Shown here piece after piece: positions 18,028-36,321 of a stretch of DNA of 64,000 bases. The notes below the pieces were generated by a model, which worked only from the letters and a program-made list of their open reading frames with translations, did no database searches and was not told the origin of the DNA. Made by a program: the position numbers and the translations under genes. The stretch comes from a virus. The first letter of the stretch is position 1. The number at the start of each line of letters is the position of its first letter. The stretch lies in IMG/VR virus record IMGVR_UViG_3300046804_003518, positions 1 through 64,000 of that record; one strand, 5' to 3'.

Positions 18028-18044
18028 ATGGTCAATATAGTTAA

Positions 18045-18052
18045 TATAAATA
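18045..18052 (+). promoter_or_regulatory. T4-type late promoter
   Basis: TATAAATA upstream of gp25. Confidence 0.75.
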
Positions 18053-18070
18053 ATCATAAAGAGAATTACT

Positions 18071-18493
18071 ATGTCCAACTACGCCAAAACAACAGCAGCA
18101 TTTATTAAAAAGAATGCAAGATATTCTGACTTGAGTATTGCTCTTGGCGTCAACCCATTCTCTGGTGATCTTAACAGAGTTACAGATATAGATGCTGTAA
18201 AAAGATCAGTAAAGAATTTAGTTTTAACTGACAAATTTGAAAGGATTCTTGATCCTAACATTGGCGGCAATGTTAAGGCAATACTGTTTGAGCCAATGAC
18301 TCCTCTAACAGAAACTATCCTACAAGATTACATTACAGAAGTGATTGAAAACTATGAGCCAAGAGCTATTCTTGAAGATGTTGTGATAGACGCTAATTAC
18401 GACAACAATTCTTATATTGTAACAATTACATTCAGAATTGATACGTCAGAAGACCCACAAGTATTAACTTTTGCATTAGAAAGAGTAAGATAA
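18071..18493 (+). CDS. 25: baseplate wedge subunit (gp25)
   Basis: YSDL...DAVKRSVKNLVLT...IENYEPRA motif. Confidence 0.92.
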   Translation: MSNYAKTTAAFIKKNARYSDLSIALGVNPFSGDLNRVTDIDAVKRSVKNLVLTDKFERILDPNIGGNVKAILFEPMTPLTETILQDYITEVIENYEPRAILEDVVIDANYDNNSYIVTITFRIDTSEDPQVLTFALERVR

Positions 18494-18494
18494 T

Positions 18495-20294
18495 ATGGCT
18501 AATGGATTCCTTACAACTTCAGAACTAGATTTTTCAAACTATAAATCTAGCCTAAAGACTTTCTTATCCCAACAAGATATCTTCAAAGACTATAACTTTG
18601 AAGGCTCTAACATGGCCGTATTGCTTGATGTTTTAGCGTATAACACTTATCTTAATGGTGTGTATCTTAACATGGTTGGCAGTGAAATGTTTTTAGATAC
18701 CGCTGCATTGAGAGAATCAATTGTATCGCACGCCAAAGAACTAAATTACACTCCTCGTTCTAGAACAGCTGCAGCAGCATATGTTAATATTACTATTACT
18801 CCAGATGACAATCCTGACTCAATTACAATTCCAAAGTACTATCAAATTAACGGTGAGACAAAAGATAATACAACATATTTCTTCACTACTGATGAGGCAA
18901 TTGTAATTAGACCAGATAACGGTGTCTATCAGGCAGCTAATGTTGCAGTATATGAAGGAAACATTGTTAAGGAAGTATTTGTTGCCAATGCAACAGCTCG
19001 TTATTTACTACAATCTGCAAATGTTGATATTCAATCCCTTAATGTTACTATAAAAGACTCTGCCACATCTACAACAGAAACAAAGTGGAATAGAGAAACA
19101 TTTCTGTTTGGTTTAGACAACGCTGACAACGTGTACTTTGTACAAGGTGCCGAAGATCACATGTATGAAGTTGTGTTTGGTAATGGCGATATTGGTAAAG
19201 CACTTGTTGATGGTAATGTTATTACTATTACCTATAGAGAGACAAACGGCATTGATGCTAATGGCGTAGACATATTCTCAGCTCCAAACAGCATCCAAGG
19301 TTACCAAGGAGTTGGTGTAACAACAGTTCAATCTTCTGCTCAAGGATCCGAGCATGAAACTAATGATGAGATTAAGTTCAATGCTCCTCGCTACTTCCCA
19401 ACTCAAAATAGAGCAGTAACAGTAGAAGATTATATTGCATTAACAAAACAAGCATTCCCATCTCTTGAAATTGTTACAGCTTATGGTGGTGAAGAAACAG
19501 AACCAAAACAATACGGTAAAGTAATTGTTGCCGCCAAGCCAATTGGTGGTACAAAACTACCAACTCCGCTCAAGACACAAATTTACAATTTCTTAAAAGA
19601 AAGATCTGCCATATCAATTGATCCAGTTGTAATTGATCCAGAGTATTTCTTTGCTGAAGTTGTAACAGAGGTTCTCTATAATATCAACTTAACAACAAGA
19701 TCAGAAAGAGATATTGGAGCTCTAGTTGAAGAAACAGTCATGCAATGGGGTGATAATAACCTTGCTAAGTTTGGTTCTGATCTAAGATATTCAAAACTTG
19801 TCAAGGCTATTGATGATAGTGAAGCAGCCATCATTAGTAACAATACAAAAGTAAGAATTGTTAAGCATGTTGAGGTGGATACAGGTATTCCATTTAGAAT
19901 TGCTTTTTCGTTTGAGAATGAACTAGAACAAGAAGTTTTATCGGCCAGAAAAATTTACGAAGATACTACATCTACTATTGAGTCCTCATTATTCACTTAC
20001 AATTTAAACAATATTGATTACCTTGCTAAAATTAAAGATGACAGTCAGGGTAACCTAATGATTGTATCCACAGTTAACGGTGTTGTTCAGTTGTTGAAGG
20101 ACAAGGTTGGTACAGTTGACTATGCCACAGGTACAATTTCTATTGGTGCTGTAGTGTATGAAGATGTCGGCCTCAATAACGAATTAGAAATTTATGGCAG
20201 GACAAAGAAGTTAGATATTGAAACAAATGCGAATAAAGTTCTTCAAATAGAGGCAGGACATCTTGTTGTTTCTGTCCGTGGTATTAGAGAATAA
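18495..20294 (+). CDS. 6: baseplate wedge subunit (gp6)
   Basis: ELDF...DYNFEGSNMAVLLDVLAYNT...QNRAVTVEDY motif. Confidence 0.93.
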   Translation: MANGFLTTSELDFSNYKSSLKTFLSQQDIFKDYNFEGSNMAVLLDVLAYNTYLNGVYLNMVGSEMFLDTAALRESIVSHAKELNYTPRSRTAAAAYVNITITPDDNPDSITIPKYYQINGETKDNTTYFFTTDEAIVIRPDNGVYQAANVAVYEGNIVKEVFVANATARYLLQSANVDIQSLNVTIKDSATSTTETKWNRETFLFGLDNADNVYFVQGAEDHMYEVVFGNGDIGKALVDGNVITITYRETNGIDANGVDIFSAPNSIQGYQGVGVTTVQSSAQGSEHETNDEIKFNAPRYFPTQNRAVTVEDYIALTKQAFPSLEIVTAYGGEETEPKQYGKVIVAAKPIGGTKLPTPLKTQIYNFLKERSAISIDPVVIDPEYFFAEVVTEVLYNINLTTRSERDIGALVEETVMQWGDNNLAKFGSDLRYSKLVKAIDDSEAAIISNNTKVRIVKHVEVDTGIPFRIAFSFENELEQEVLSARKIYEDTTSTIESSLFTYNLNNIDYLAKIKDDSQGNLMIVSTVNGVVQLLKDKVGTVDYATGTISIGAVVYEDVGLNNELEIYGRTKKLDIETNANKVLQIEAGHLVVSVRGIRE

Positions 20295-22291
20295 TGAAAG
20301 AACTAGAAAAGTATATATCGCCATTCATTGCTAATCAATTCCCTTCTATCTATAAAGAGGAAGGTCCTCTATTCATTGCATTTGTAAAAGCTTACTTTGA
20401 GTGGCTTGAATCACAAGACCAGGTAATTTACGATTCAAGAAGACTTCTTGAATACAGAGATGTTGATAAGACAGTGGATGTCTTTATTAATAACTTTAAA
20501 AAGAAATATATGTTTCCTATTCCAGATGATATTGCTGGCGATAAGAGACTGCTGCAGAAGCATATTAAAGAAGTTTATGGCTCAAAAGGCACAGAGCGTG
20601 GGTTAAAGCTTCTATTCCAATTATTGTTTGCTGATAATATTAGCGTCTATAAGCCAGGTGATGATGTTCTTAGACTATCAGATGGCGAATGGAATAGAGA
20701 CATTTATCTAGAGGTTTCTTACAAACCCTACAATAGTTTATTTGTGGGTGAGTTTATTAAGGGCCGCATTTCTGGTGCAAGAGCATATGTCGAGAGCTTT
20801 CAGACTAAATTTGTTAACAATAAAAACATTAACGTCTTTTACTTAACAGACGTTGTTGGTAACTTCAGAAATGATGAGGTTGTAATTATTGATGAGGCAA
20901 GGTTAGCGGAGGGACAAGTACCAGCTGTTACAGCAATCAATTCTCCAAAGATTATTGGTTCCATGACAGAAGTGGATGTTGCCAATAGAAGTTCACCATT
21001 TGGTTATTCGGTTGGCGATATTTTGGAAGTCCAGGGTAAAGGCTCTCGCGGTAAAGTTGTAGTAACAAAACTTAAAGAATTGGATGGCACAATTACATTC
21101 AATCTTGAAGATGGAGGATCCGGTTACACAATTAATAATACAGTTTTTCTAATTAAGGGTCCTGTAACTGGTGTTGTGGTTGAGAATGGTGGAGTTGGTT
21201 ACTCAAATTCTGATTATATCGTATTCTCTAATGGAACTGCTAATGCAGTAGCCAATTTAGTAACTGATGGATCAGGTACTATTCTCAACAACACTGCTGG
21301 TGGTGATACCTTATTCACCATTACTCATGGTGGCAATGGATTTTTAACTACAAATGTATTCACCGTCTCGGTTACAGTTTCAAACTCAACTGGTGGTCCT
21401 TCTGCAGGTGCTGGTGCCAACCTTGTTCCTACAATTGCAGGCGGTGGCGATTTGGCAGGACTAAGAATTGGTGCATTGTCCAACATTAAGTATTTGTTTT
21501 CTTCGGCAGCTAAAATCAATCTTGTAGGCAAGTCCCTTAACTACATTGGTACAGCAAACAGTGTTGATAATATGCTTGTTGGTCAGTTGTCGTATCCTAC
21601 AGGTACAGGGTATGGCTTATCGTCAAACGTTGCCGCAGGTTTTGATACTATATTAAAGGATGCTTTAAACTATCAAAATTATGAAGTTGGTACAATCTCA
21701 AAAATCTTTACAACAAATCCTGGTCAAGATTATACTACAAATGTGCAGATTACAGTCACCGACACTATCATTGGTTTAATGGGTTTATTGGATAAGGAAC
21801 ATCCGGCGGGCCGTGGCGACACTGGTAATGGTTACCTAGGCAATAATGCAGTGGTAACGGGAGTCAGTGGTTTTGGTTCAACGGCTCTTGGTGAAGTTAA
21901 GGTTATTGATTCTGGTCTTGGTTATGAACAAAGAGAGGAAGCAACCCTTGTATCTCTATCAAATACAAACCTTATTACATCTGGCACAGTGTTACTAATG
22001 AAGCAAGGTCAGGGCGAAGGATTCTTTAAATCTACTCGTGGCTTTTTAAACTCTGACAAGTATATTCACGATAGTTATTATTATCAAGATTATTCATATG
22101 AAGTAAGATCGTCAGTAGTATTTAATAAGTATAGCGATCTTCTAAGAAAACTTTGGCACCCAGCTGGTGTGGAGAAGTTTGGTCGCGTGCTTGTAAGTAG
22201 TGAAGTAACATCTGCCACACCAGATGTTCTACAGCAGGCATACATAGGGGATGGGTCAACGACGTCGTTTGAAATCCCGGGTGGGGCATGA
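20294..22291 (+). CDS. 7: baseplate wedge initiator (gp7-like)
   Basis: IKEVYGSKGTERGLKLLFQLLF; DSYYYQDYSYEVRS...LWHPAG motif; follows gp6. Confidence 0.75.
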   Translation: MKELEKYISPFIANQFPSIYKEEGPLFIAFVKAYFEWLESQDQVIYDSRRLLEYRDVDKTVDVFINNFKKKYMFPIPDDIAGDKRLLQKHIKEVYGSKGTERGLKLLFQLLFADNISVYKPGDDVLRLSDGEWNRDIYLEVSYKPYNSLFVGEFIKGRISGARAYVESFQTKFVNNKNINVFYLTDVVGNFRNDEVVIIDEARLAEGQVPAVTAINSPKIIGSMTEVDVANRSSPFGYSVGDILEVQGKGSRGKVVVTKLKELDGTITFNLEDGGSGYTINNTVFLIKGPVTGVVVENGGVGYSNSDYIVFSNGTANAVANLVTDGSGTILNNTAGGDTLFTITHGGNGFLTTNVFTVSVTVSNSTGGPSAGAGANLVPTIAGGGDLAGLRIGALSNIKYLFSSAAKINLVGKSLNYIGTANSVDNMLVGQLSYPTGTGYGLSSNVAAGFDTILKDALNYQNYEVGTISKIFTTNPGQDYTTNVQITVTDTIIGLMGLLDKEHPAGRGDTGNGYLGNNAVVTGVSGFGSTALGEVKVIDSGLGYEQREEATLVSLSNTNLITSGTVLLMKQGQGEGFFKSTRGFLNSDKYIHDSYYYQDYSYEVRSSVVFNKYSDLLRKLWHPAGVEKFGRVLVSSEVTSATPDVLQQAYIGDGSTTSFEIPGGA

Positions 22292-25200
22292 GTACAATAG
22301 TTGTCAAAGTAAATGGAGTACTACAGGTACTAGGTACGGATTATACCGTCTCTGGTAACAATATTGTATTTGCCAATCCACCAGATGCAAATGCAAAAGT
22401 GGAGATTAGAAAGGAAGCAGCCAGAAGTGTTTTAGAGACAAGCTTCAAAATTGATCAGATCAGATTGACAGAACTTGTTACTGCATATAGCACACAAACA
22501 ACTGTATCTTCCACATTCAATACATCTATTGGCACAGGCACCACAACAGCGTTTGTCACTGCGTTCTCAACATCTAAGACAACAGATAGTGCAGTTCTTA
22601 CATCCAAGAACACAACAACAGCTTATATTTCTGTATTTGATACAGTATTCAATACAAGTAAGTCAACAACAACTCAATTTGTTACTGCCTACCAAACTGT
22701 ATTCAATACTATTTCAACATTTGATACAACAATTCTTACTTCATACGCCACAACAAAAACAACATCTACTGTATTTGAAACAACAGGTGTTACAAGTAAG
22801 TCAACTACTACAACATATAACACTATCGTCACAACTGTATACGATAGCAATAGAACAACTTCAACTGTTTATAGTACGGCCTATACAACAACGTTTACAA
22901 CCCAAACAGCATATGCAACAACAAGAAACACTGTATATGATACTATTGTTGCCACACTGACAAGCAAAAGCACAGACACAACAGTTGCAACATCAACAAG
23001 CATTAATACTGTATTTGTAACAGCTTATGGTACTACCACTGTATTTAATACAACAAAAGATACTAACCTTTCAACAGCAAAGTCGACAGACACAACTATT
23101 GCTACTTCAAAGGCAACAAATACAACAACTACATTTGCTACAATTTACGATACAACTGGTTCAACATCTAAAAATACAACAACTGCATTCTTAACTGTAT
23201 TTGATACAGCCAAGACAACATCAACTTTATTTGCAACAACATTTGATACAACGTTTGTTACAAATAAACTAACATCAACTAGCAAATCAACAACTTCTGT
23301 ATTCAACACAACAACCACATTTATTACAACATTTGATACTGGTTACGATACTAGTAAGTCAACAACATCGTTGTTTAATACGACAACAACATTCAATACA
23401 TCATATGCAACTAACTTTGCAACGACAACAGCATTTGAAACAAATGTAGCAACCCAAACCGCTGTATCACAAAATACTGCCAGAAATACAACTACAATAT
23501 TCAACACAGCAACAAGCAAATCAACTACAACAATATTCAACACAGCAACTACGTTTAATACAACGTATGCAACTAACTTTGCAACAACAACCTCGTTTGA
23601 AACTAATTTCATTACAGCAACAAACCGTGGAACAAGTAGAGCCACTGATACAACTGGCTCAACAAGTAGAGCAACAGGTACTTCAAGAGTAACCACAACT
23701 GTATTTAATACAACAACTGTATACGATACTGCAACAGCATTCCAAACAAGTACAATATTCCAAACACAGACAACCGCAGCTGGCTCAACAACATTCTTGA
23801 CAGCAAATGAAGTTACATTTCAAACCTTTACTATAAAGGGTACTGGTGCAAGTTACATTACAACGTACCAAACAAGCTATGATACAATTATTGGCTATGG
23901 TAAGGGTGGTTTACCAATCTATGGCCAGACATATTTCAATACATCGAAATCTACACAGCCTTTAACTGCGTTTTATTTCCAGACCACAGCTGTGGGTGTA
24001 ACTGTGACAACCTATGCAACTTACACATACCTACCTCAAGGGTTTGGTTATGTGTTTTTTGATACAACAAAACTAACAGCCACGGCAAGTAGACTTACAT
24101 CAAGAGGTACGACATTCTATTTTCAAACAGATACAAGTAGAAGTACAGACACATCTAGAGCCACAAGTACATCTAGAGCCACAAGTACGTCTGCATCAAC
24201 AACCACTGCATATGATACTTCAACAACGTTTGGCACTACGTATCAGACAACAACCTCGTTTGTAACGACCTTTGACACATTAACAATATTTGGTACATCT
24301 AAGAGCACAACAACAGTATTTGATACAGCAAGAAGTACTGCTGCTGCCACAAGCACAAGCGGATCAACTACATCTGTATTTGATACAGCAACGTCAGCTG
24401 TAACATCAACGACCTTTATTACTACCTATCTAGCAGCTACAACAACAGTATTTGTAACATCTAAGAGCACAACAACAGTCTTTGATACAGCAAAGGCCAC
24501 GAGTGCAGTAACTGCCACAAGTGCGGCCACATCCACTGCATTCAACACTCTTGTTTCAACTTCTAACACAACAAGTAGAGCAACAGCAACGAGCGTTGCC
24601 ACAACAACTGTATTTGATACATCTACAGCATATGATACAAACATTGCAACTGTAAGAGACACATCCAAGTCAACAGCTACAACATACGAAACTAATTTTG
24701 GCACAAGTGCTGTCACAGCAACAGTGTTTAATACTGTATATAACACGGTAGGAGCTACCCAAAAAGCAACTGCTACGACAACAGTCTTTAATACAGCATA
24801 CGCCACAACAACAACATTTGATACAGTATACCAAACCGTATTTAATACAAACAAAACAACCGATACTTCTATCAACACCTCAAGATCTACATTGGGTACA
24901 ACAGGATCTGTATATCAAACATCTACAGCATATAATACCCAAACAGCATTTGAAACAAACAGAAACACGGTATTTGACACTGTTGTGGCAACAGACACAT
25001 CTCGCGACACAATTATCTTAACATCTAAGAGCACAACAACATCATTTGAAACGGCAATTAATACTGGCTATGACACAAGCAAGTCTACAACATCCGTATT
25101 CAACACAGTATTCAATACTGCCAAAAATACAACCAGCGTATTTGACACAACAATTGATACTTCATATGCTACAACAAAAGCCACTGCAACATCAAAATTT

Positions 25201-28200
25201 ACAACAAATTTAACTGGAAGAAGTACAACCAGCAGCTTTGACACAGCTTATGCAACTGCAATTGCAACATCCAAAACTACATCAACTGCATTTATTACCG
25301 GGTATGATACAACAACTTTGTTTGATACTTCTACTCCTACAACAAGAAACACCCTTACTCAATCTGTTTACTCAACCACTTCAAGCACATTGAAGGGCAC
25401 TGATACTGCCATCTTAACAGAATATAGAATTCTCGCAACTCAAACATTGTTTAGTACTAAGTATGAAACCACATATGAAACAATTGCTGGTGTACTAACA
25501 ACAATTTCTACGGATGTTGTAACCAACAGAACAACTAATACTGCATACGCATTTGAAAGTAGAAATACGTTAAGGGATACTGCTTTTCAAACAACAAATC
25601 CAACATTGATTGCCACAACAACATTATTCCAAACATCATACAATACAAATCAGATCACACGCTTTGTTACACTTAACACTGCCTTTGGCACAAGTAAAAA
25701 TACATCAACAGTATTTGATAAAGCCACTACAACTGTATTTGCAACAATAAGTGCATTTGATACTGTAAAGACCACAGACTTCTCTACATCACGTAATACG
25801 TTAATTACTTCTTCAACAGCATTTGAAACAAGTAAGACAACTCTTGTAGCAACTGGTACATCTAGAACTACTACCTCTTCGTATCAGACAAATATAAACA
25901 CAGTGTTCAATACAGGATACGACACATCCAAGTCAACAACATCGTTATTTGTTACAGCATTTTTAACTGTCTCAACTTTTGAAACTAATAAGACAACCTC
26001 AAGAACAACAACGCTAACTAAGGGCACAGAAATTCTCACTTTCTTTGCTACATCTCAATCAACTGTTAAGCCAACAAGCACAACGCGATCAACAGTTTAT
26101 GTTAGTGACTTTGTCACCGTCTCCCGTACTACAACATTTGTAACAGGCACAAATGAAGTAACGTCATTTGATACTAAGAGGGGTACAAACATTGATACAG
26201 TGTTTGATAGCTCAACATCTTTCTTAACGAGCTTTAACACTACTCTTAATAAGACCACAACAGCAATTACTAATAAGAGTACAACTACAGGATTTGACAC
26301 TTTTGTTAACACATCAAAGGTAACTAATGTTGCAACATCCACAGATACGTTAACTTCATTCAATACAATAACTGGCTTTTTGACATCATTTGATACAAAC
26401 AAGACGACACAGAGTTCAAAATCAACTGTATTCAATACTGCGTTTGACACAACGTTTGCCACAACAAAGTCAACATCCACAAGTAGAAGTACAACCACAT
26501 CTACAAGTAAAAGTACCTCGACGGCATACGATACAACAAAGAGTACCGTTAATAATACGAGCACAACTTACCAAACCACATTCCAAACAGATTCTGGTGC
26601 CGGCACTCTACATAACACATCAGCTTTAACAACTGGTCTAACCGGTACTCTTACTTCTTCAGTTACAGTTAAGTTAACAACAGTTGACACAACTAAATCA
26701 ACAGAAACACAGTATCTGATGTCAAGTAGCTATGGGACAGGTACTGTATTTGAAACTGTTGTCGGTACAGCATACGAAACATCAACAGTATTTAATACGA
26801 CAACTGCATTTAATACTGATACAGTATTTAACACCACAACAACCTTTCAAACAGATTCTGGTAAGGGTACATTGAAGTCGACCTCTAAGTCTACTGCAAC
26901 AAGTTACGCTACTGGCACAAGTAAAAATACATCCACATCAAAAATAACATTAACAGCAAGTGGTACGTATTATATTTCTCAAAGAAATACTACATCTGCC
27001 TATGACACAACAAAAAATACAGCTGGTGGATTAACAAGTCGAGCCACAAGCACGTCAGACACCACAACAACTGTTTACCTAAGTGCCTATCAATCAAACA
27101 TTAACACGACAACAACATACTTGTCGTCATACTCAACTGTCATTGATACAAGCAGACAAACGCAAGCTCTTACATCATTTGGAACATCAAGAACTACAGA
27201 AACAATATTCCAAACTGCCGCTTTAGGTGGCACTCTATTCAATACAACAAAGAATACAACTACCGCATTTGATACAGTTTATCTCATTACACAATCTGTT
27301 GCCTCAACTGCTACCACATTTCAAACTGATTCTGGAGCTGGTACACTAAAGAATACATCTCAGAACACAATTACTGCGTATACAAGATTTGAAGGTGGTA
27401 AGCAGACGTCAACTGTATTCTCTACAGCGTTTGCTACAAATCCGTTTGTAACAACTGCATATGGCACATCTAGAACTACAACAACTGTATACCCAACAGT
27501 GTTTACAGAATTTGGTACATCTAAAGACACCACAACTACTTTCCAGACCGACTCAGGCGCTGGTACAATGAAGGCAACGTCAAAGGACACAGTAACAGCA
27601 TTTAATACAATCTATGCAACTGCCCCAGTAACATCAAAGTCAACAACCACATCATTTGACACCATTTATAGTACTGGTATACCAACAACAAGACAAACAG
27701 CCACATTGTTGACAACTGCTACTGCATATGCAACTGAAACTGCAAAAATTACTGGCTCAGGTAAAATTACACAATTTGCAACTACAACTACAATCAACAC
27801 TGATACAGCAAGAGGAACTTCAACTACATTCCAAACGGATTCTGGTAAAGGCACACTTCACAGCACGTCAAGAAATACTCTAACTGGTACATTGACATCA
27901 TTTAACACTACAACTTTAACAATTAGCGACATGCTAACAAGCAAGTCCACTAGCACTACAACAGACCAAGGAACTCTTGTTAATACATCTACAAGCACTT
28001 CTTATGCTACACAAACTGAGTATGCAACCTCAGGTGGTGCAACAGTATTTGGTACCTCAGTAACAACTGAGACAGTCATTGACTTTACAGTTAGAAACAC
28101 GGAATATCAAACGCTAACTTCTGTTGATACATTAACGTATTATGAATCAGGGGATAGACTAACTGCAAAAACTACAGCAATTTTAACTAACACAAATACA

Positions 28201-28395
28201 TCTCAAATTGTTAGAGATACAACAAGAACAACGTCAATTGATACAACGTATATCACAACCTTCTTGACAGACTCAGGCGCAGGTACAATGGTGTCAACAT
28301 CAAAGTCAACATCTAGAACAACTGACAAGATAACAAACACCGATTACGATACAGCAATTCAAACAACATATGAAACTGTTTATATAAATAACTAG
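22288..28395 (+). CDS. 2035 aa Thr-rich self-complementary beta-hairpin fibre protein
   Basis: T-x-T periodicity; mirrored 4/6 spacing with i+j=1109 verified in two windows; six F(Q/L)TDSG(A/K)GT turn motifs in the C-terminal part. Confidence 0.8.
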   Translation: MSTIVVKVNGVLQVLGTDYTVSGNNIVFANPPDANAKVEIRKEAARSVLETSFKIDQIRLTELVTAYSTQTTVSSTFNTSIGTGTTTAFVTAFSTSKTTDSAVLTSKNTTTAYISVFDTVFNTSKSTTTQFVTAYQTVFNTISTFDTTILTSYATTKTTSTVFETTGVTSKSTTTTYNTIVTTVYDSNRTTSTVYSTAYTTTFTTQTAYATTRNTVYDTIVATLTSKSTDTTVATSTSINTVFVTAYGTTTVFNTTKDTNLSTAKSTDTTIATSKATNTTTTFATIYDTTGSTSKNTTTAFLTVFDTAKTTSTLFATTFDTTFVTNKLTSTSKSTTSVFNTTTTFITTFDTGYDTSKSTTSLFNTTTTFNTSYATNFATTTAFETNVATQTAVSQNTARNTTTIFNTATSKSTTTIFNTATTFNTTYATNFATTTSFETNFITATNRGTSRATDTTGSTSRATGTSRVTTTVFNTTTVYDTATAFQTSTIFQTQTTAAGSTTFLTANEVTFQTFTIKGTGASYITTYQTSYDTIIGYGKGGLPIYGQTYFNTSKSTQPLTAFYFQTTAVGVTVTTYATYTYLPQGFGYVFFDTTKLTATASRLTSRGTTFYFQTDTSRSTDTSRATSTSRATSTSASTTTAYDTSTTFGTTYQTTTSFVTTFDTLTIFGTSKSTTTVFDTARSTAAATSTSGSTTSVFDTATSAVTSTTFITTYLAATTTVFVTSKSTTTVFDTAKATSAVTATSAATSTAFNTLVSTSNTTSRATATSVATTTVFDTSTAYDTNIATVRDTSKSTATTYETNFGTSAVTATVFNTVYNTVGATQKATATTTVFNTAYATTTTFDTVYQTVFNTNKTTDTSINTSRSTLGTTGSVYQTSTAYNTQTAFETNRNTVFDTVVATDTSRDTIILTSKSTTTSFETAINTGYDTSKSTTSVFNTVFNTAKNTTSVFDTTIDTSYATTKATATSKFTTNLTGRSTTSSFDTAYATAIATSKTTSTAFITGYDTTTLFDTSTPTTRNTLTQSVYSTTSSTLKGTDTAILTEYRILATQTLFSTKYETTYETIAGVLTTISTDVVTNRTTNTAYAFESRNTLRDTAFQTTNPTLIATTTLFQTSYNTNQITRFVTLNTAFGTSKNTSTVFDKATTTVFATISAFDTVKTTDFSTSRNTLITSSTAFETSKTTLVATGTSRTTTSSYQTNINTVFNTGYDTSKSTTSLFVTAFLTVSTFETNKTTSRTTTLTKGTEILTFFATSQSTVKPTSTTRSTVYVSDFVTVSRTTTFVTGTNEVTSFDTKRGTNIDTVFDSSTSFLTSFNTTLNKTTTAITNKSTTTGFDTFVNTSKVTNVATSTDTLTSFNTITGFLTSFDTNKTTQSSKSTVFNTAFDTTFATTKSTSTSRSTTTSTSKSTSTAYDTTKSTVNNTSTTYQTTFQTDSGAGTLHNTSALTTGLTGTLTSSVTVKLTTVDTTKSTETQYLMSSSYGTGTVFETVVGTAYETSTVFNTTTAFNTDTVFNTTTTFQTDSGKGTLKSTSKSTATSYATGTSKNTSTSKITLTASGTYYISQRNTTSAYDTTKNTAGGLTSRATSTSDTTTTVYLSAYQSNINTTTTYLSSYSTVIDTSRQTQALTSFGTSRTTETIFQTAALGGTLFNTTKNTTTAFDTVYLITQSVASTATTFQTDSGAGTLKNTSQNTITAYTRFEGGKQTSTVFSTAFATNPFVTTAYGTSRTTTTVYPTVFTEFGTSKDTTTTFQTDSGAGTMKATSKDTVTAFNTIYATAPVTSKSTTTSFDTIYSTGIPTTRQTATLLTTATAYATETAKITGSGKITQFATTTTINTDTARGTSTTFQTDSGKGTLHSTSRNTLTGTLTSFNTTTLTISDMLTSKSTSTTTDQGTLVNTSTSTSYATQTEYATSGGATVFGTSVTTETVIDFTVRNTEYQTLTSVDTLTYYESGDRLTAKTTAILTNTNTSQIVRDTTRTTSIDTTYITTFLTDSGAGTMVSTSKSTSRTTDKITNTDYDTAIQTTYETVYINN
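28383..28390 (+). promoter_or_regulatory. T4-type late promoter embedded in the last codons (YINN) of the Thr-rich gene
   Basis: TATAAATA upstream of the gp8-like gene. Confidence 0.7.
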
Positions 28396-28417: not shown

Positions 28418-30469
28418 ATGTTAACCAAATTTAAAAGAAATGTTGTTGACTTATTCATAGATTCTGTTGCCAATACGCTGAGCTTAGATCTTTCTGGCAC
28501 AGTAACAGTCAACACCTCATCAGCCAATGTCACAGGTTCAGGTACTAATTTTACTGTAGACTTTACGGTAGATGATCGTTTGTTTATTGGTTCTGAGTCA
28601 AGACAAGTTATTTCTATTGTCAATAATACATTAATGACTGTGGCCTCGGCATATTCTGCCAATGCGACAGCAAACACATATAAAAAAGGTAGATTGAAAA
28701 ACGATAGTTATTACGTTTTTGCTGCAAGACAGTCACCGTTTGAAAATGAGGCTGTTGCAGCTAATACAATTGATGATAATTATGAATCTCATATCTTCAT
28801 CCATGATGAATTAATGTTTGGTATGAAGATTACAAACGAAGATGTGCTACCAATGGTTGCCAAAAAGCAATGGCAGGCCAACACAATCTATGCCATTTAT
28901 GATGATAAAGACCAAGATTTACCAGCAAAAACCTTTCATGTAATAACAGCAGAAAACAAAGTATATAAGTGTATTCACAATCACCTTGGTGGCATCTCAG
29001 AGGTTGAACCATCCCACACAGAGCTTGGCTATCCACCTGAAGAGTCAGATGGCTATAGATGGATGTATCTCTACACAATCAACAACATTGATTACCTAAC
29101 ATATGCCACAGAAAATTACATTCCTATCATTGAAAATGCTAACGTAAAAAATGCTGCAATTGATGGGTCCATATTTAACATTACTGTTGAGGCTAATGGA
29201 TCATCATATCCAGCTGACAGCGGTACTATTAAGACGGATCCAAATGGCAACAATTATATTATCCAAATCAGAACTGGTACATCTACCTCAAACGATTTCT
29301 TTGCTAACTGTGCAATTACAATTACAAACGACTCCACAAATTTAACATATGTGAAGGAAATTCGTGACTATGTTTCAAATGGAGTTGGTAACTTTGTTAT
29401 CTTGAAAATTCCATTTACAACTGGTCAAGTTTCAAACAACAACCCATATTCAATTGGCCCATATATTAAAATTGATTCTAAGACAGGATCAAATTGTATA
29501 GCCTCAGCAGTAATGCAAAATATTTCAAATACCAACTTTACTGGTAGTATTGAAATGGTGGATATTATTAATCCAGGTAAAAACTACAAACAAGCAAATG
29601 TCTCCGTACAGACATCAACTGGTTTTGGTAGTGGAGCTAGGGTTAGAGCCATTTTGTCACCACCTGGCGGCCATGGTTCTAATGTCAAGGATGAGTTGTA
29701 TTGTCAATCTGTTGGTATTGGTGTTGTATTCTCAAATACAGCAACATTTTCCTTTTCGTCGGATGTGGAATTTAGAACAGTTGGTATATTGAAAAACCCA
29801 CTTTCCGCTAACACAATTGATGGAACTGGAACAGTTGACCTAGTAGCTAATAGTTTGAGTGTTGCAGGAGTTGGAACTAAGTTTACAAACGAACTTAATA
29901 TTGGTGACCATATCATCTACTTAGATGAAGAAAAAGAAGTTGTTTCAATTGCCAATAACACTAGCCTGACACTCAAAACACCATTCTCATATACTGTTGT
30001 GGCAGAATCATTTGATATTAGAAAAAGATTCTTCAATTCCTTTTTCAACCAAACGGTCGATGTAGCTGCATCTAATACAACCCCTGCGTTGCTGCAACCT
30101 GGTGAGTATATATTGGGGTCTGATGGCGCCGGTGGCGGATCTCAGGTTCAAGCTAAAGTTGCATTTGCTAATACATCCAAGGTCATTTTAACAGGTCTTG
30201 ATAAGACGCAGGCACGCGGTAATAATAGTGTTGTAACTTTTGTTAATGATACAGTTATGGATGGTGTTGGTTATGTGGTAAATGGTGCTGATACGCCAAC
30301 AATACCTGCATCGGGAGCTAAATACTCTAAGACGGCAGGTAATACATATATTACGACGGTTCCAGATTTAAAATTGTATTCTGGCGAAGTTTTATATCTA
30401 CAAAACTTGCTACCAATACAAAGATCAAACACAACAAACGAACAAATTAGACTAGTAGTTAAGTTCTGA
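28418..30469 (+). CDS. 8: baseplate wedge subunit (gp8-like)
   Basis: WQANTIYAIYDD...VYKCIHN...DGYRWMYLYTI...ILSPPGGHGS motifs. Confidence 0.8.
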   Translation: MLTKFKRNVVDLFIDSVANTLSLDLSGTVTVNTSSANVTGSGTNFTVDFTVDDRLFIGSESRQVISIVNNTLMTVASAYSANATANTYKKGRLKNDSYYVFAARQSPFENEAVAANTIDDNYESHIFIHDELMFGMKITNEDVLPMVAKKQWQANTIYAIYDDKDQDLPAKTFHVITAENKVYKCIHNHLGGISEVEPSHTELGYPPEESDGYRWMYLYTINNIDYLTYATENYIPIIENANVKNAAIDGSIFNITVEANGSSYPADSGTIKTDPNGNNYIIQIRTGTSTSNDFFANCAITITNDSTNLTYVKEIRDYVSNGVGNFVILKIPFTTGQVSNNNPYSIGPYIKIDSKTGSNCIASAVMQNISNTNFTGSIEMVDIINPGKNYKQANVSVQTSTGFGSGARVRAILSPPGGHGSNVKDELYCQSVGIGVVFSNTATFSFSSDVEFRTVGILKNPLSANTIDGTGTVDLVANSLSVAGVGTKFTNELNIGDHIIYLDEEKEVVSIANNTSLTLKTPFSYTVVAESFDIRKRFFNSFFNQTVDVAASNTTPALLQPGEYILGSDGAGGGSQVQAKVAFANTSKVILTGLDKTQARGNNSVVTFVNDTVMDGVGYVVNGADTPTIPASGAKYSKTAGNTYITTVPDLKLYSGEVLYLQNLLPIQRSNTTNEQIRLVVKF

Positions 30470-30479
30470 GGTTCAAAGA

Positions 30480-33400
30480 ATGGCTCTTGATATCGCAAAC
30501 ACAGTATTGAATGCATCTCCATATTTTGATGATTATAGCGAAGATAAGAACTTTCATAGAGTTCTTTTCAGACCATCTGTTGCCGTCCAGGCTCGTGAAC
30601 TAAATCAGGTTCAGTCTATTCTCCAGAACCAGATTGAAAGATTTGGCCAGCATGTCTTCAAAGATGGTACAATTATTAAGGGTTGCGGCCTATCATACCT
30701 AGAAAGAATTGATTACGTTTCTGTTAATGATCAGTTTGATTCTAATACTTCTCTATCATCAACAAATACCCAGTTTGTCAATGCGATTGCAGTTGGCTCA
30801 AATTCGGGTGTAGTTGCCCAAATTATTTCTGCAAGAGAAGGCTTTAAGGCATCAACAAGCCCTGCTAGATTCTTTATTCAATATACCCAACCAGGTTTCA
30901 ACAACCAAAGAACTTTTGACCAGAATGAAACAATCAGTCTTTACCAGCCTGGCAAGTCTTATATTGATAAGGTTGTTGTACAAGTTAACACGGTAATTAC
31001 TGTCAACACAACAAACTTCCCAGTTGGTTCTAAATTAGTCAATAATGTCAATAAGGCACGTGGCTTCATTATTAATGCCTATGCCAATACGCTAGGTAAT
31101 TATGTTGAGATGAGAAATGTCAGAAAGACATTTGCACCTGGCGACACATTGGTTCTTTCTACAGATGCGGCTGTATCTGCTAATGTTATTAATGTAGATT
31201 ATGAAAGCTACGCTAACTCTCTAATTGATACAATTACAACATTATCGGATAATACTGAGTTAGGATACACATCTTTAGGTTTTGCTTATGGTGTTGCTGT
31301 ATCACCTGGTATTATCTTCCACAAGGGTCACTTTGTTAAAGTAGATTCACACACAACAATTATTAACGAGAATGCGGCTGACCCAAGTGGTAAAATTCTT
31401 TACTTTAAGACAGAAGAAACAGTAGTTAAAGAAACAGATGACTCATCTCTCTACGACAATGCTTCTGGCACAACAAACATCAATGCACCTGGTGCCCATA
31501 GATTAAAGCTAACCTCAACACTAATTGCAAGAAATAAAAATGGTGCCAATACCATTTCAAATACTGACATTGCATTCCCAATTGTTGAGTTTGGTAACAA
31601 TGGCCCTATCTTCCAAAAGACAAACACAGAATATAATATTATTGGTGACGAGCTCAATAAAAGAACATATGAAGAGTCAGGTCACTATGTTGTCAAGCCG
31701 TTTACAATTCTAACAAAGCCTCACGGTAGCGACCCAGATAAGTTTGTTTACGAAGTTGGTCAGGGTCTGTCTTATGTTAAGGGTAAGAGAATTGAATTCC
31801 TAAACAATCAAAACGTTGAAGGAAGAAAGGGAGTTGATACTATATCAGAATCTGAACAACCTATTACTATGGCTTATGGTAATTATGTTGTTGTAGATGA
31901 CTTGAGAGGTTACTTCCCAATCAACCAAGATGTTGAAGTAAGATTCTACAATGCAGCTCAGGATGCTGTATCAGGTGAAAGACTACCAGTAGCTAACACA
32001 GCTACAGGCACAATTGTTGGCTACGCAAACATTAGGGCAATCACCTACATTGATTCAAACTCAGCCAAAAAGGGCTCACATCTAGCTCAGTATAGACTAT
32101 ACATCTTCAACTATAGACCAGTTGGCACCTACACATTCCAAGATGCAAGATCAGTTGTCTATAATAATGGTGTAAATGATTTAGCATTTGCCGACCTCGT
32201 ATTAACAGGGGGCGTGCCAATTCTTGAAGAAAGTTCAGCCACTCCTCTATTGTTTAGCGTTAACGCTAAGGCTCTAAAGAACCTAAGAAACAGCAATAAT
32301 GTTCTTGATACTAATTATTACTATACTGCAGCCAACACGACAGCTCAACTTCAGTCAACAGGTATCCTAACATTTGGTATTGGTGCATTGAAGGGTATTC
32401 TTGGATTCACCGGTAGCTCAAATGCCGATGAATTAAAGGTTGATATTCATGTTGTTGATGCCAATGCTCAATGTGCTGCAGCCCTAGTTGGCACAACAGC
32501 TGCTTCTGCCACAAACGTAATTACTGGTACAGGCACTCTATTTACTGAAGACTTTATTCCTGGTGAATGCATTAGATTCACAGGTCTACCTTCAGCCAAT
32601 ACACATAGAATTGTATCAATCACTAATGCCACATCAATGGTAATTAATACTGCTGTAACAGTTACTGCAAACACATATACAAGAGTACACCTCAGAGGTT
32701 CTGTAATTGCGCTGAACCCAGCTGCTGGCACCAAGAGAACAATGGTTGTCAACCCAGGTACTGAGACAGCCACAATTAACCTAGGTAATTCATATACTGG
32801 CACAACAAATGTCGTTGTTAGATTCCAGGCTTTAAATAATGAAGCCAATACAATCAGTAAACAAATTAATAGAAACAGTGTTGTAATTATTAACACTGCA
32901 AACAATGTTGCAGGAACAACAGGCCCATGGTTACTTGGTGTACCAGATGTGCTAAAGTTGAATGGTGTCTTTATTGGTTCTAACTCTTCAAACTTTGTTA
33001 CAGCAAATAGAGTTAGTGACTTTGTTCTTGATAATGGTCAAAGAGACACCCACTACGATCATGCCAAGATTTCATTGGCACCAAAAACATCATTTGGGTC
33101 ATTACCAAGTGGTACCCATCTACTTGTACAGTTTGATTGCTTTACAGCAAACGTATCAGGTGGTGAAGGATTCTTCTCTGTTGAGTCATATCAAGCAAAT
33201 GATACACCTAATGCCAATACCCAAACGGCACTAAGAACATATGAGATTCCAACATACACAACAACAGTAGCTAACACAACTGTTACATATGACTTGAGAG
33301 ATGTTATTGATTTTAGACCTTATAAGGCCAACACAGCTAATATTACAACATCATTCACTTCTGCTACAATTAATCCACCAGCCACAAATACATTTAACTC

Positions 33401-36308
33401 TAATACAACAGTATATAATCCATATCCTGGTTCATCATTAACAACAAACTTTACTTATTATCTTGGAAGAAAGGATAGATTAGTACTTACACCAGAAGGT
33501 GCATTTAAGGTAGAAGAGGGTCTACCAGGATTAAATCCAAGACTATCGCCAATGCTACCAGAAGTGTTAAATGTAGCAGAAGTAACAGTCCCTGCATATC
33601 CTTCACTATCTGATACAGAAAAATCAAATATCAGTAGAAGAGACAATTTCATTCAGATTGATATTCTAACAAATAAGCGCTTCACAATGCGTGACATTTC
33701 TGTTCTTGAAAAGAGAATTGAAAGATTAGAATACTACACAACTCTAAACATGCTTGAGAGCATTGCTCTCTCAACAATGATTGCTGATCAAAATGGCGAT
33801 CAAAGATTCCAGAATGGTTTCTTTGTTGATCCTTTCAATAGCCATGCATTTGGTAGAACAGAAGATCCTGGTTATAGAATTGCTATTGATGAGCAAAAGG
33901 GTCTACTAAGACCACTATTTGAGCCACAAGTTATTGAAATGGAATTTGATACAAATGCAGGTTCATATAGCAATGTCCAAGTAACTGGCAACATGGTTAC
34001 ACTTGCATATACACATGAAGTGTATATTGATCAGCCATATGCATCAGATCCAGTAAATGTTTCTGGCACACCAATTGCCTGGAAAGGAACAATTGATGTT
34101 AGACCAACTGTAAGAAATGATGTTGAATTCCTAGCAAGAGCTGCCTCAGTTGGTAGCACATCTAAGATTGCCCAGGCTTATGAAAATATGTCTACTGTTA
34201 CACCAGGCATCACGCAGTATGGTTGGTGGAGAGAGGGAATTCAGAATAATGATGACTATAATGTTAAGTCCAATGCAAATGATGCAAGAAATGCAACATC
34301 AATTGCAATTGAAACAAACAAGTCAATAACAACTCAGAGTGGCGAAAAGGTACAGACAGGTATTGTGTACCTATCAAAGGAAAGAGTTTATGCCTTCAAG
34401 GCAGTAGGCCTAAAGCCAAATACAATTCATTACCTATTCATTAATGATAACAACAACTCACAGTATGCAGCCCTAGGTGAACTAAGTTCAACACCAAATG
34501 CAGGTGACGAAACATTTGTTACTAGATCATCTCCATGGGGTACAGTTCTAGAAACAGACTCACGTGGTGAAATTATTGGTAAGTTTATTGTACCAGCCCT
34601 AGCATTAAAGTCAGGTACCCATAAGCTAACTCTAAGAAATAGAAATACATTAAACCGTGGTATTGATGAATCATTTGCTGATGCCTACTTTACAATTGAT
34701 ATCACTCTACAACAACCACCTATAGTTATTCAGCCAAACCCTCCAGGGCCACCAGACGCCAATACACCTGCAAATACTACATTACCTCCACCAGCTAATT
34801 CAACTACAAACACAGTTGTTACGCTGCCTGAGGCATTTGCAAGATTTACATATACTGGCGAAACTACAGTCACAGCTCAGCAAAATGCTAATGGGTACAT
34901 TGCAAATGGTACATTTACATTAACATTTACAGATGACAGCTTTGTTAAGAATGGAAGTATCACTGCTTATGAATGGAATTTCAATACTGGAGATTTCCCA
35001 GAAATTGGAATTCTAAATGTCAATACGACTGTAACTGGCGTTGGCCCACACACTGTAACATTTAGTACAGATAAGGCTGTTCAGGATGTTCTTGTCACAT
35101 TGACAATTACAGACTCTGCAGGCGAGAAGAAGAGAAATAGCCAACCAATTAGACTAACTAAGTTGGTCAAACCACCTATTGTTGTTCCTCCACCAGCAAC
35201 ACCTCCAACCGTACCAAACGTTGAGTTGACATTTGTCACATCAGAAGTCAACCAGGTGTCTGATCCATACATCTATAATTCCTGGAACGTGTTTGAGTTT
35301 AGAGACAGCTTCCACCGTGGGTTCAACACACCATATCTCAACCTAACATATGATACAGGAACATCTTTAGGTACTAACACCGTAGTCAAGGTTATTGCTA
35401 AGCCATCAGTTGACTATCAAGGCTATATTGGTTGGACTGTGACACCAGTATCTGCAACCTCACTAAGAACCTTTACCCAAGCAAACCTAACTCAAGTTTA
35501 TGTTGAGGCAGGTGGCTCAGGATATTCTAACAACGACACAATTAGATTCTCTAATGGTCAAGTTGATGCCTATGCAACAGTTATCACAGACGTGTATGGT
35601 TCAATTCGTTATGTTGAACTTGACACAATGGGTAACTTCTCTAACGGTGCTCCTGTAACCCAGCAAACATTTACAGCCAATAGCACTGTTTACAATAACT
35701 TCCCACTATCTGTATCAAGTACAAACACAAGCATTCTTGTTACAGTTAATGGCCTTGTCCAATCTCCAGGTGTCGATTACCAAGTAACTGGCGGTGGCTC
35801 AACTCTAAACTTTACAACCAACTTAAATTATCTTGTAAGTCCAGATATTGCAGTCGTATCGTATGATGTAACTGGTGTAACACCTGGTACTGGATTTAAG
35901 ACGCCTCAGCAAATTAAAGTACAGATTGCCAACACAACAGCTCCAGCAAATAGCACAAATGGTAACACATCAGGTGGTAGTGGTGCAGTATTGACGTTGG
36001 TACCTGGTGTCGTCTTCAATTCAACTCCAACAAATTCACCAAGATGTGCAAACGATTCGATTACTCTATACTCTAACACAGGACCAGATAGTGAAACAAT
36101 TGTACTTGTTAAGGCTGACTTCTATCTATCCAATGGTTATGCAAACTCAATTGGTAATACATCCCAGCACTTTACATTGAAGACAACATCAGCTGTTCCA
36201 ATTAATATTCCACCAATTAACGTTGGTAACTGGGGTGGCATAGGATTACCTGGAACTGGCGGTGGTTGGGTGAATGATGATTATATGAAGTACACAAAAG
36301 TAAAATAA
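30480..36308 (+). CDS. large virion structural protein (DUF4815/VrlC-like)
   Basis: SPYFDDYSEDKNFHRVLFRPSVAVQARELNQVQSILQNQI; APGAHRLK; IERLEYYT; FQNGFFVDPF. Confidence 0.8.
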   Translation: MALDIANTVLNASPYFDDYSEDKNFHRVLFRPSVAVQARELNQVQSILQNQIERFGQHVFKDGTIIKGCGLSYLERIDYVSVNDQFDSNTSLSSTNTQFVNAIAVGSNSGVVAQIISAREGFKASTSPARFFIQYTQPGFNNQRTFDQNETISLYQPGKSYIDKVVVQVNTVITVNTTNFPVGSKLVNNVNKARGFIINAYANTLGNYVEMRNVRKTFAPGDTLVLSTDAAVSANVINVDYESYANSLIDTITTLSDNTELGYTSLGFAYGVAVSPGIIFHKGHFVKVDSHTTIINENAADPSGKILYFKTEETVVKETDDSSLYDNASGTTNINAPGAHRLKLTSTLIARNKNGANTISNTDIAFPIVEFGNNGPIFQKTNTEYNIIGDELNKRTYEESGHYVVKPFTILTKPHGSDPDKFVYEVGQGLSYVKGKRIEFLNNQNVEGRKGVDTISESEQPITMAYGNYVVVDDLRGYFPINQDVEVRFYNAAQDAVSGERLPVANTATGTIVGYANIRAITYIDSNSAKKGSHLAQYRLYIFNYRPVGTYTFQDARSVVYNNGVNDLAFADLVLTGGVPILEESSATPLLFSVNAKALKNLRNSNNVLDTNYYYTAANTTAQLQSTGILTFGIGALKGILGFTGSSNADELKVDIHVVDANAQCAAALVGTTAASATNVITGTGTLFTEDFIPGECIRFTGLPSANTHRIVSITNATSMVINTAVTVTANTYTRVHLRGSVIALNPAAGTKRTMVVNPGTETATINLGNSYTGTTNVVVRFQALNNEANTISKQINRNSVVIINTANNVAGTTGPWLLGVPDVLKLNGVFIGSNSSNFVTANRVSDFVLDNGQRDTHYDHAKISLAPKTSFGSLPSGTHLLVQFDCFTANVSGGEGFFSVESYQANDTPNANTQTALRTYEIPTYTTTVANTTVTYDLRDVIDFRPYKANTANITTSFTSATINPPATNTFNSNTTVYNPYPGSSLTTNFTYYLGRKDRLVLTPEGAFKVEEGLPGLNPRLSPMLPEVLNVAEVTVPAYPSLSDTEKSNISRRDNFIQIDILTNKRFTMRDISVLEKRIERLEYYTTLNMLESIALSTMIADQNGDQRFQNGFFVDPFNSHAFGRTEDPGYRIAIDEQKGLLRPLFEPQVIEMEFDTNAGSYSNVQVTGNMVTLAYTHEVYIDQPYASDPVNVSGTPIAWKGTIDVRPTVRNDVEFLARAASVGSTSKIAQAYENMSTVTPGITQYGWWREGIQNNDDYNVKSNANDARNATSIAIETNKSITTQSGEKVQTGIVYLSKERVYAFKAVGLKPNTIHYLFINDNNNSQYAALGELSSTPNAGDETFVTRSSPWGTVLETDSRGEIIGKFIVPALALKSGTHKLTLRNRNTLNRGIDESFADAYFTIDITLQQPPIVIQPNPPGPPDANTPANTTLPPPANSTTNTVVTLPEAFARFTYTGETTVTAQQNANGYIANGTFTLTFTDDSFVKNGSITAYEWNFNTGDFPEIGILNVNTTVTGVGPHTVTFSTDKAVQDVLVTLTITDSAGEKKRNSQPIRLTKLVKPPIVVPPPATPPTVPNVELTFVTSEVNQVSDPYIYNSWNVFEFRDSFHRGFNTPYLNLTYDTGTSLGTNTVVKVIAKPSVDYQGYIGWTVTPVSATSLRTFTQANLTQVYVEAGGSGYSNNDTIRFSNGQVDAYATVITDVYGSIRYVELDTMGNFSNGAPVTQQTFTANSTVYNNFPLSVSSTNTSILVTVNGLVQSPGVDYQVTGGGSTLNFTTNLNYLVSPDIAVVSYDVTGVTPGTGFKTPQQIKVQIANTTAPANSTNGNTSGGSGAVLTLVPGVVFNSTPTNSPRCANDSITLYSNTGPDSETIVLVKADFYLSNGYANSIGNTSQHFTLKTTSAVPINIPPINVGNWGGIGLPGTGGGWVNDDYMKYTKVK

Positions 36309-36321
36309 TTGAGGAACAGCA

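Follow-up and report, generated by a model that had tools for sequence, protein, structure and literature searches.

Introduction

The fibres of bacteriophages determine which bacteria are attacked, and nearly all of the solved ones are trimeric rods. In gp37, the protein at the tip of the T4 long tail fibre, the chain of the needle domain (PDB 2XGF) runs out to the tip and back, with both ends of the segment together and the receptor-binding part at the turn. Here we describe a threonine (Thr)-rich protein of an uncultured, T4-like phage for which a similar course of the chain can be proposed. It is encoded by an open reading frame (ORF) of 2035 amino acids (aa) in the first 64 kb of a complete virus record of 188,323 bp (IMG/VR record IMGVR_UViG_3300046804_003518, positions 1 to 64,000; hereafter, the window), where it lies among baseplate genes. 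Beyond this likeness the two proteins differ: gp37 is a trimer with iron-binding His-x-His repeats, has no sequence similarity to the present protein, and is without a Thr ladder, a cation-pi pair code or repeated capped mini-hairpins.

Two other proteins come closer. The first is the genome's other Thr-rich protein (56411-60370, 1319 aa), which has the same composition and pairing rules and a mirror register of 633 pairs (i+j=1368); it forms one stem only, is encoded outside the baseplate operon and has neither the DSGxG motif nor the C-terminal domain considered here. The second belongs to Stenotrophomonas phage DLP6, the closest cultured relative as judged by gp6 (47% identity), whose gp7 homologue ends in a Thr-rich tail. 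As expected of a Thr-rich fold-back protein, the 2035-aa ORF, which we call the fibre ORF, has a gapless register of at least 100 pairs, code pairs sorted by face, and compensated insertions and deletions (indels).

We find that the ten-residue DSGxG motif that recurs in its C-terminal domain is real and conserved, and we favour, with moderate confidence, the reading that the copies cap short two-stranded hairpins there. Neither the domain nor the motif is described in any family, solved structure or paper that we found. Also new are the second stem of the fibre ORF, the seven sites of the candidate cap motif with their evolutionary turnover, and the link to the gp7 of a cultured phage.

Motif copies and their conservation

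The chain consists, in order, of an N-terminal piece, stem 1, a linker, stem 2 and a C-terminal domain of 613 aa that contains every motif. Relatives were collected from scans of viral and metagenome contigs, with a motif-pattern scan for the more distant ones. They comprise eight distinct close orthologues, which share the gene order and are 73-82% identical over the last 640 aa, the full-length L032 (2106 aa, same synteny, 55% identity in the C-terminal domain) and the partial L036 (52% identity). A second locus search seeded with L032 recovered only L032 itself, and a HMMER profile search of 1.84 billion representative proteins returned a single 91-aa fragment, which places the C-terminal domain in a small clade. 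The ratio of nonsynonymous to synonymous substitution rates (dN/dS) of the ORF, in comparisons of the window with three orthologues, is 0.10-0.14 at a dS of about 1.2; the ORF therefore encodes a genuine protein that evolves under purifying selection.

The pattern F[QL]TDSG[AK]GT[LM] matches six times in the ORF, and all six nucleotide positions at which an earlier, sequence-only reading of this DNA had placed it were exact:

26554-28392, plus strand, aa 1423-2035: conserved C-terminal domain, which holds all motifs
26581-26610, plus strand, aa 1432-1441: motif copy 1, FQTDSGAGTL; other sequence stands in its place in L032 and L036
26845-26874, plus strand, aa 1520-1529: motif copy 2, FQTDSGKGTL; centre of the longest local hairpin predicted
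27196-27231, plus strand, about aa 1637-1648: degenerate seventh copy, FQTAALGGTLFN; DNA repeat family D2
27319-27348, plus strand, aa 1678-1687: motif copy 3, FQTDSGAGTL; only the core pairs fit
27541-27570, plus strand, aa 1752-1761: motif copy 4, FQTDSGAGTM
27829-27858, plus strand, aa 1848-1857: motif copy 5, FQTDSGKGTL; missing from L032
28261-28290, plus strand, aa 1992-2001: motif copy 6, FLTDSGAGTM

A looser pattern, T[DN]xGxGT[LMIV], found the same six places and no others in the six frames of the 64-kb window, and the copies are not tandem but irregularly spaced, 74-158 aa apart. As DNA they are 60-80% identical and differ at synonymous sites, and the motif region contains no DNA inverted repeats; these are therefore old copies kept at the protein level and not recent duplications. 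The protein is built from 4- and 6-residue units (Thr 33%, Ser 11.4%, Asp 4.1%, Gly 4.0%), and periodicity alone yields many mirror matches in it, which could make the motif a by-product of low-complexity repeat expansion without any structural role. We consider this extremely unlikely and already contradicted by the data, since the protein's own composition predicts about 0.015 DSGxG per 2035 aa, against six occurrences of a ten-residue motif with the rare D, G, G and L/M, and since the copies are conserved site by site across relatives whose synonymous changes are saturated.

The motif sites are kept in the eight close orthologues and in L032, with a core of T-[DN]-x-G-x-G-T-[LMI]. At individual sites the Ser is exchanged for Leu, Tyr or Phe and the Asp for Asn or Ala. 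Whole sites also come and go. Site 4 has been excised as exactly 12 aa in L010, L011 and L019, where TT-SGK-ST, with a new SGK turn, remains; site 1 is replaced in L032 and L036 and site 3 in L036, and site 5 is lost in L032. The seventh site, degenerate in the window, is intact as FQTDYGAGTLVN in L021 (7568-7840) and is also present in L032 and L036, and in L036 (1-3522) an insertion that follows copy 2 contains one more motif, YQTDLGLGTL. Lineages have from 3 to 7 copies, and these deletions, replacements and gains indicate that the sites behave like surface loops.

Two fold-back stems and their pairing code

The segments upstream of the C-terminal domain fold back on themselves in two mirror registers, so that the protein has two arms, not one:

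22471-23841, plus strand, aa 62-518: stem 1, 5' arm; gapless with aa 591-1047 (i+j=1109)
23842-24057, plus strand, aa 519-590: stem 1 apex; Gly/Tyr/Phe-rich, hypervariable
24058-25428, plus strand, aa 591-1047: stem 1, 3' arm
25429-25671, plus strand, aa 1048-1128: linker between the stems; best-conserved stretch
25672-26046, plus strand, aa 1129-1253: stem 2, 5' arm (i+j=2551); not listed in the sequence-only reading
26047-26178, plus strand, aa 1254-1297: stem 2 apex, 44 aa, conserved
26179-26553, plus strand, aa 1298-1422: stem 2, 3' arm

Pairs were scored with a log-odds matrix trained on stem 1 and on the 633-pair stem of the other Thr-rich protein. Enriched pairs were F-R (74 observed, 6.6 expected), F-K, I-Y, K-Y, Q-S, A-V, N-S, D-S and T-T. 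Stem 1 has 457 pairs and scores 339 bits, with a Thr-pattern agreement of 0.80, and stem 2 has 125 gapless pairs and scores 73.8 bits (shuffle maximum 17.6±3.2), with an agreement of 0.84; parallel-register controls reached 42 bits for stem 1 and 22 bits for stem 2, as opposed to 339 and 74. One face of the stems is a T-T ladder with interspersed F-K, F-R, I-Y and K-Y pairs, the opposite face carries S, A, V, N and D, and the two-residue parity runs without slip along both stems. Averaged across the C-terminal domain, face parity is still visible (Thr 44% versus 21%). Both stems are gapless in every full-length orthologue, with 457-515 pairs in stem 1 and 82-146 pairs in stem 2; arm lengths vary and the registers nevertheless stay gapless, and indels are therefore compensated.

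Identity to the orthologues differs along the chain as follows:

Linker: 79-86%
C-terminal domain: 73-82%
N-terminal piece: 70-82%
Stem arms: 60-74%
Stem 1 apex: 4-40%, with indels

The apex loop of stem 1 varies from 25 to 226 aa in the orthologues. This is the variability pattern of a host-recognition tip, and makes the apex a candidate distal tip. When a conserved base and a variable receptor-binding tip are read in the usual way, the motif domain would therefore belong to the base.

The same comparison bears on the view that the main role of the motifs is to bind a metal ion or a sugar of the host surface, with several such loops displayed on the domain and turn geometry secondary, and that the domain is a second adhesin and not a base. 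Asp- and Gly-rich loops often bind calcium, the Asp/Asn, the two Gly, the Thr and the Leu/Met are near-invariant over a dS of about 1.2, and a copy number that varies between lineages is a feature of avidity-type binders. We nonetheless judge this view unlikely, as no calcium- or carbohydrate-binding family matches, the residue order is unlike that of RTX GGxGxD, each loop has one acidic residue and this can be replaced by Asn, and a domain among the best-conserved parts combined with a hypervariable stem 1 apex is the usual signature of an anchor as opposed to a receptor binder.

Two known motifs were considered for the DSGxG sites and rejected. The RTX calcium beta-roll (GGxGxDxUx) has no Pfam match here, the order in the present motif is D-x-G-x-G, and the copies lie too irregularly and far apart along the chain (see the spacing above). 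A protease motif (GDSGG or D-S/T-G) is likewise not supported, with Ser and Asp substituted at individual sites and no match to a protease family.

Evidence that the motif is a hairpin turn

The sequence-only reading had proposed that the motif is a standard turn, flanked at several copies by mirror pairs of residues. The pairs it named are present: F1520-K1534, F1514-Y1540, F1508-K1546 and F1502-K1552 at copy 2, and F1752-K1766, K1746-F1772 and F1742-Y1776 at copy 4, with the second Gly as the centre of both sets. Two Gly fall within five motif residues, in a protein with 4% Gly. When D-S-G-x-G-T-(L/M)-x-x is numbered as a nine-residue loop, flank pairs 1-3 are T-T, Q/L-S and F/Y-K/R, pair 5 is T-T, and pair 9 is often a code pair (K-F, F-R, I-Y, K-Y or F-K). 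The window, the close orthologues and L032 all show this scheme, and the second Gly is the best hairpin centre in nearly all copies across all orthologues.

With the stem-derived matrix, the hairpin score at this fixed centre exceeded the domain's 95th percentile (7.0 bits) in four of the six copies. The copy 2 hairpin, with arms at aa 1486-1523 and 1531-1568, scored 24.2 bits and is the top centre of the domain. As a control that keeps periodicity and composition, each 5' arm was paired with its own 3' arm and with those of the other copies (six partners in all); the own arm was best for pairs 6-12 at sites 1, 2, 4 and 6 (4/6; binomial probability about 0.009). By this arm-swap control, the earlier statement of extended pairing at copies 2 and 4, and of short or imperfect pairing at the others, was right. 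The claim that local mirror pairing exceeds chance holds by the stem matrix and by arm swapping, but not by a plain count of pairs (see below).

AlphaFold2 predicted the 91-residue segment around copy 2 as a single long hairpin, with strands at residues 2-42 and 48-88 and a loop at 43-47 made of S-G-K-G-T (mean predicted local distance difference test score (pLDDT) 81). The alignment used consisted of 39 motif-centred segments, both orthologous and paralogous. DSGxG was thus placed in a predicted turn at copy 2, while the model of the whole domain was uninformative. The idea of a standard turn is upheld by flanks that follow the stem rules, by the copy 2 model and by the loss of whole motifs in relatives.

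A Foldseek search with the copy 2 model returned only long hairpins from pore-forming toxins and phage tail knobs, with template modelling (TM) scores of 0.2-0.33. Lysenin (5EC5), CDTb (6UWI), aerolysin (9GXJ), phi29 (6QZ9) and P68 (6IAC) share a tight turn between two antiparallel strands, each about 40 residues long, and are often Ser/Thr-rich; against the copy 2 model they show this same low TM range and 8-15% identity. These hairpins differ in being stable only as staves of multi-chain barrels, and the present protein shows no sign of a barrel or of a membrane role.

Test of a branched, RNA-like arrangement

The sequence-only reading had further proposed that the long stem is followed by a bush of shorter hairpins, a protein analogue of multibranched RNA. 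In this picture, independent, solvent-exposed hairpins radiate from a junction, each capped by the turn. The analogy with tetraloop-capped RNA hairpins is a recurrent, sequence-defined loop that closes stems complementary by pairwise rules; it differs in that complementarity is here a side-chain preference on a beta ladder and that the optimiser misses the motif hairpins.

To test this, we scored nested folds in the manner of Nussinov by the stem-derived matrix, with a penalty for starting a helix. For aa 1045-2035 this fold recovered stem 2 (96+21 pairs). Across five proteins and three penalties, however, it placed only 0-3 of the 5-7 motifs in hairpin loops, contrary to what the bush predicts, and the set of motifs changed every time; in the C-terminal domain of the window, copy 2 alone lay in a hairpin loop. 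The optimum prefers other turns, namely NTTTT, TRFEGG, FTEF and IYATAPV. The fold of the domain scored 80.9 bits, compared with 29.7±3.0 for plain shuffles and 61.9±6.7 for shuffles of 12-residue blocks (about 2.8 standard deviations), which indicates a limited excess of antiparallel complementarity and no defined branched fold.

Only copy 2 has arms of more than about 12 pairs (38 pairs in this clade), against 5-12 pairs in the other copies, and L032 has not kept the long arms of copy 2. On their own, hairpins of 5-12 pairs would probably be unstable, which counts against free branches. In addition, the motif hairpins span under half of the C-terminal domain and the remainder has other turns (NTTTT, RFEGG, NP), suggesting a meander; the 3' arm of copy 3, for instance, is directly followed by the RFEGG turn and a further strand. 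A free-hairpin bush does find some support in flanks that are compatible with the pair code and share the same centre in all copies, in the copy 2 hairpin from AlphaFold2, in stem faces that are either polar or cation-pi paired, so that a free two-stranded ribbon is conceivable, and in the DLP6 gp7 fusion, which suggests that such ribbons can exist without a trimer. Its coarse branching, two stems followed by a domain, is real, and to this extent the multibranch claim stood, while the free RNA-like bush did not. All in all we hold such a bush to be quite unlikely, and it is specifically not established. A packed antiparallel domain with capped hairpins is favoured because the tests of the bush failed, and a packed meander sheet fits the C-terminal domain at least as well.

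Long-range pairings within the domain were also considered and rejected: with 20-34 bits, copy 1 with copy 6 and copy 2 with copy 5 did no better than parallel-register controls (19-28 bits), neither pairing is conserved in the window, and both follow from the self-complementarity of the motif. The same self-complementarity is what would let the flanks pair between chains if the protein were a conventional homotrimeric fibre, with the motif marking shaft units. Trimers with repeated beta units make up most of the solved phage fibres, and in three orthologues copy 2 pairs with copy 5 at 33 bits. In the window this pairing has only 9.7 bits, however, the irregular spacing of the copies is unlike a shaft repeat, there is no similarity to known fibre shaft repeats, and a stem of the same kind is fused in DLP6 to gp7, which in T4 is not trimeric, all of which leaves a trimer with a poor chance. 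A three-copy complex prediction of the copy 2 91-mer (score 0.02, mark 0.42) has no bearing on oligomers either way.

Weighing of the hairpin-cap reading

In the arrangement that we favour, TTFQT-DSGxGT(L/M)xx-TS(K/R)xT would be a hairpin cap made of a strand, a Gly-rich loop and a returning strand. The cap would close antiparallel hairpins of the lengths given above, which may obey the same cross-strand pairing rules as the two long stems and would be the building blocks of a beta-rich C-terminal domain. The hairpins would pack into one domain and not be splayed, and the Asp and the two Gly may be kept for loop geometry.

Several observations weigh against this arrangement. On the side of structure prediction, AlphaFold2 gave no structure for the C-terminal 640 aa with five orthologues (pLDDT 25.6), the alignment behind the sole good model treats paralogous copies as homologues, and a beta-prone peptide taken in isolation has hardly any other option than a hairpin. 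The motifs rarely serve as loops in the Nussinov-style optimum. At the six motifs, the numbers of aromatic/basic mirror pairs (1, 4, 4, 3, 2 and 2) equal the background median of 3, and two controls put the motif hairpin scores inside the noise that this periodic protein generates; scores of at least 24 bits, for example, occur at 10 of 1522 centres inside the stem 1 arms, although these should contain no local hairpins. As the flanks are common to all six copies, the core pairing amounts to about one observation. F-Q-T-D-x-G-x-G-T-L is moreover stricter than geometry usually needs, which hints at an added role such as binding. Finally, the location in the virion and the attachment to gp7, discussed below, would follow from gene order and the DLP6 fusion only.

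Searches of sequence families and literature

Searches of Pfam and PHROG gave no match for the whole protein, the C-terminal domain, or the apex or linker pieces, and a PDB sequence profile search gave nothing at E-values up to 10. Scores in an ESM Atlas feature search did not exceed 0.80, the chance level. A word-indexed protein search returned nothing, probably swamped by low-complexity words, and tblastn and megablast against cultured phages, with the low-complexity filter on, returned nothing for the fibre ORF. A literature search found no description of such fibres.

Baseplate context and relation to DLP6 gp7

The fibre ORF lies in a baseplate operon of T4 type:

16150-18027: gp5-like hub/lysozyme gene
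18495-20294: gp6
20294-22291, plus strand: gp7-like baseplate wedge gene, 665 aa, directly upstream of the fibre ORF
22288-28395, plus strand: Thr-rich fibre ORF, 2035 aa, between the gp7-like and gp8-like genes
28418-30469: gp8-like gene
30480-36308: DUF4815 giant, 1942 aa

Its start ATG overlaps the stop of the gp7-like gene (ATGA), and the two are translationally coupled. In DLP6, the gp7 homologue (KU682439.2, AAY80_265; 15780-19643) is a protein of 1288 aa in three parts. The core is 43-50% identical to the upstream gp7-like ORF, and the Thr-rich C-terminal tail forms a gapless fold-back stem of aa 716-960 with aa 989-1233 (245 pairs, 154 bits), scored with the pair matrix trained on the present phage. 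DLP6 has the same 4- and 6-residue units and the same order of baseplate genes; it differs in that the stem is fused to gp7, as opposed to a separate, coupled ORF, and in having one stem, without second arm, C-terminal domain or DSGxG motif. The homology of the gp7 core is to the upstream ORF, and the fibre ORF itself aligns with no part of DLP6 gp7 other than the Thr-rich tail; a weak collinearity of aa 54-111 with DLP6 gp7 aa 526-575 had an E-value of 0.022, which holds for a single comparison. A term search of the DLP6 paper (PMC5349666) found no mention of threonine.

The third part of DLP6 gp7 is an insert of about 140 aa (aa 575-712), which is not Thr-rich and by eye resembles a putative jelly-roll or carbohydrate-binding module. 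As a separate observation, the lengths of 665 aa for the gp7-like protein and 1288 aa for DLP6 gp7, together with the ATGA overlap, apparently reflect a gene split or fusion between the lineages.

The fusion in DLP6 and the overlapping start of the fibre ORF support a baseplate fibre mounted on gp7, and by gene order and homology the fibre is probably mounted on the gp7 baseplate wedge. In T4, gp7 is present as one copy per wedge and is not a trimer; taken with the DLP6 fusion, this leaves room for a non-trimeric ribbon. Under the hairpin-cap reading, the C-terminal domain, the N-terminal piece and the linker between the stems would form a conserved base beside the gp7 wedge, with the C-terminal domain as the proximal end. 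From this base would project a long arm of 457 pairs with a hypervariable tip and a short arm of 125 pairs. One strand residue spans 0.33-0.34 nm, and the arms may be about 150 and 40 nm long.

A more far-reaching possibility, to which we give a modest chance, is that a single non-trimeric chain folds by simple cross-strand pairing rules into a forked fibre, with two free beta-ribbon arms of these lengths and a cluster of mini-hairpins capped in the manner of tetraloops. If this were true, a pairing table could largely suffice to read out the three-dimensional layout, as it does for RNA, a design principle not known from solved fibre structures.

The present protein and its relatives represent a small undescribed group of putative baseplate fibres whose long arms appear to be set by the residue-by-residue self-complementarity of one chain, to which the C-terminal domain would add a recurrent, sequence-defined hairpin cap. 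Should the cap and the pairing rules hold experimentally, they would provide compact design rules for long thin beta ribbons and capped hairpins, and fibre length and tip position could be read directly from metagenomic sequence. DLP6, with its simpler, fused version, would then be a cultured handle on the family.

Other observations at the locus

In the fibre ORF, only aa 3-45 have PHROG matches, and these involve small parts of several tail-fibre and virion-structural profiles (E-values of 5e-6 to 2e-5); the first 45 aa (MSTIVVKVNG...VEIRK; 22288-22422) appear to be a small N-terminal module common to other phage structural proteins. The alternative that these 45 aa repeat the end domain of the gp7-like protein was rejected, as the two have no direct similarity. 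Downstream of the gp8-like gene, the region 30480-38031 encodes the 1942-aa DUF4815 protein and a 569-aa protein, both of which match PHROG 358; their counterparts in DLP6 are annotated in its record as VlrC (presumably VrlC).

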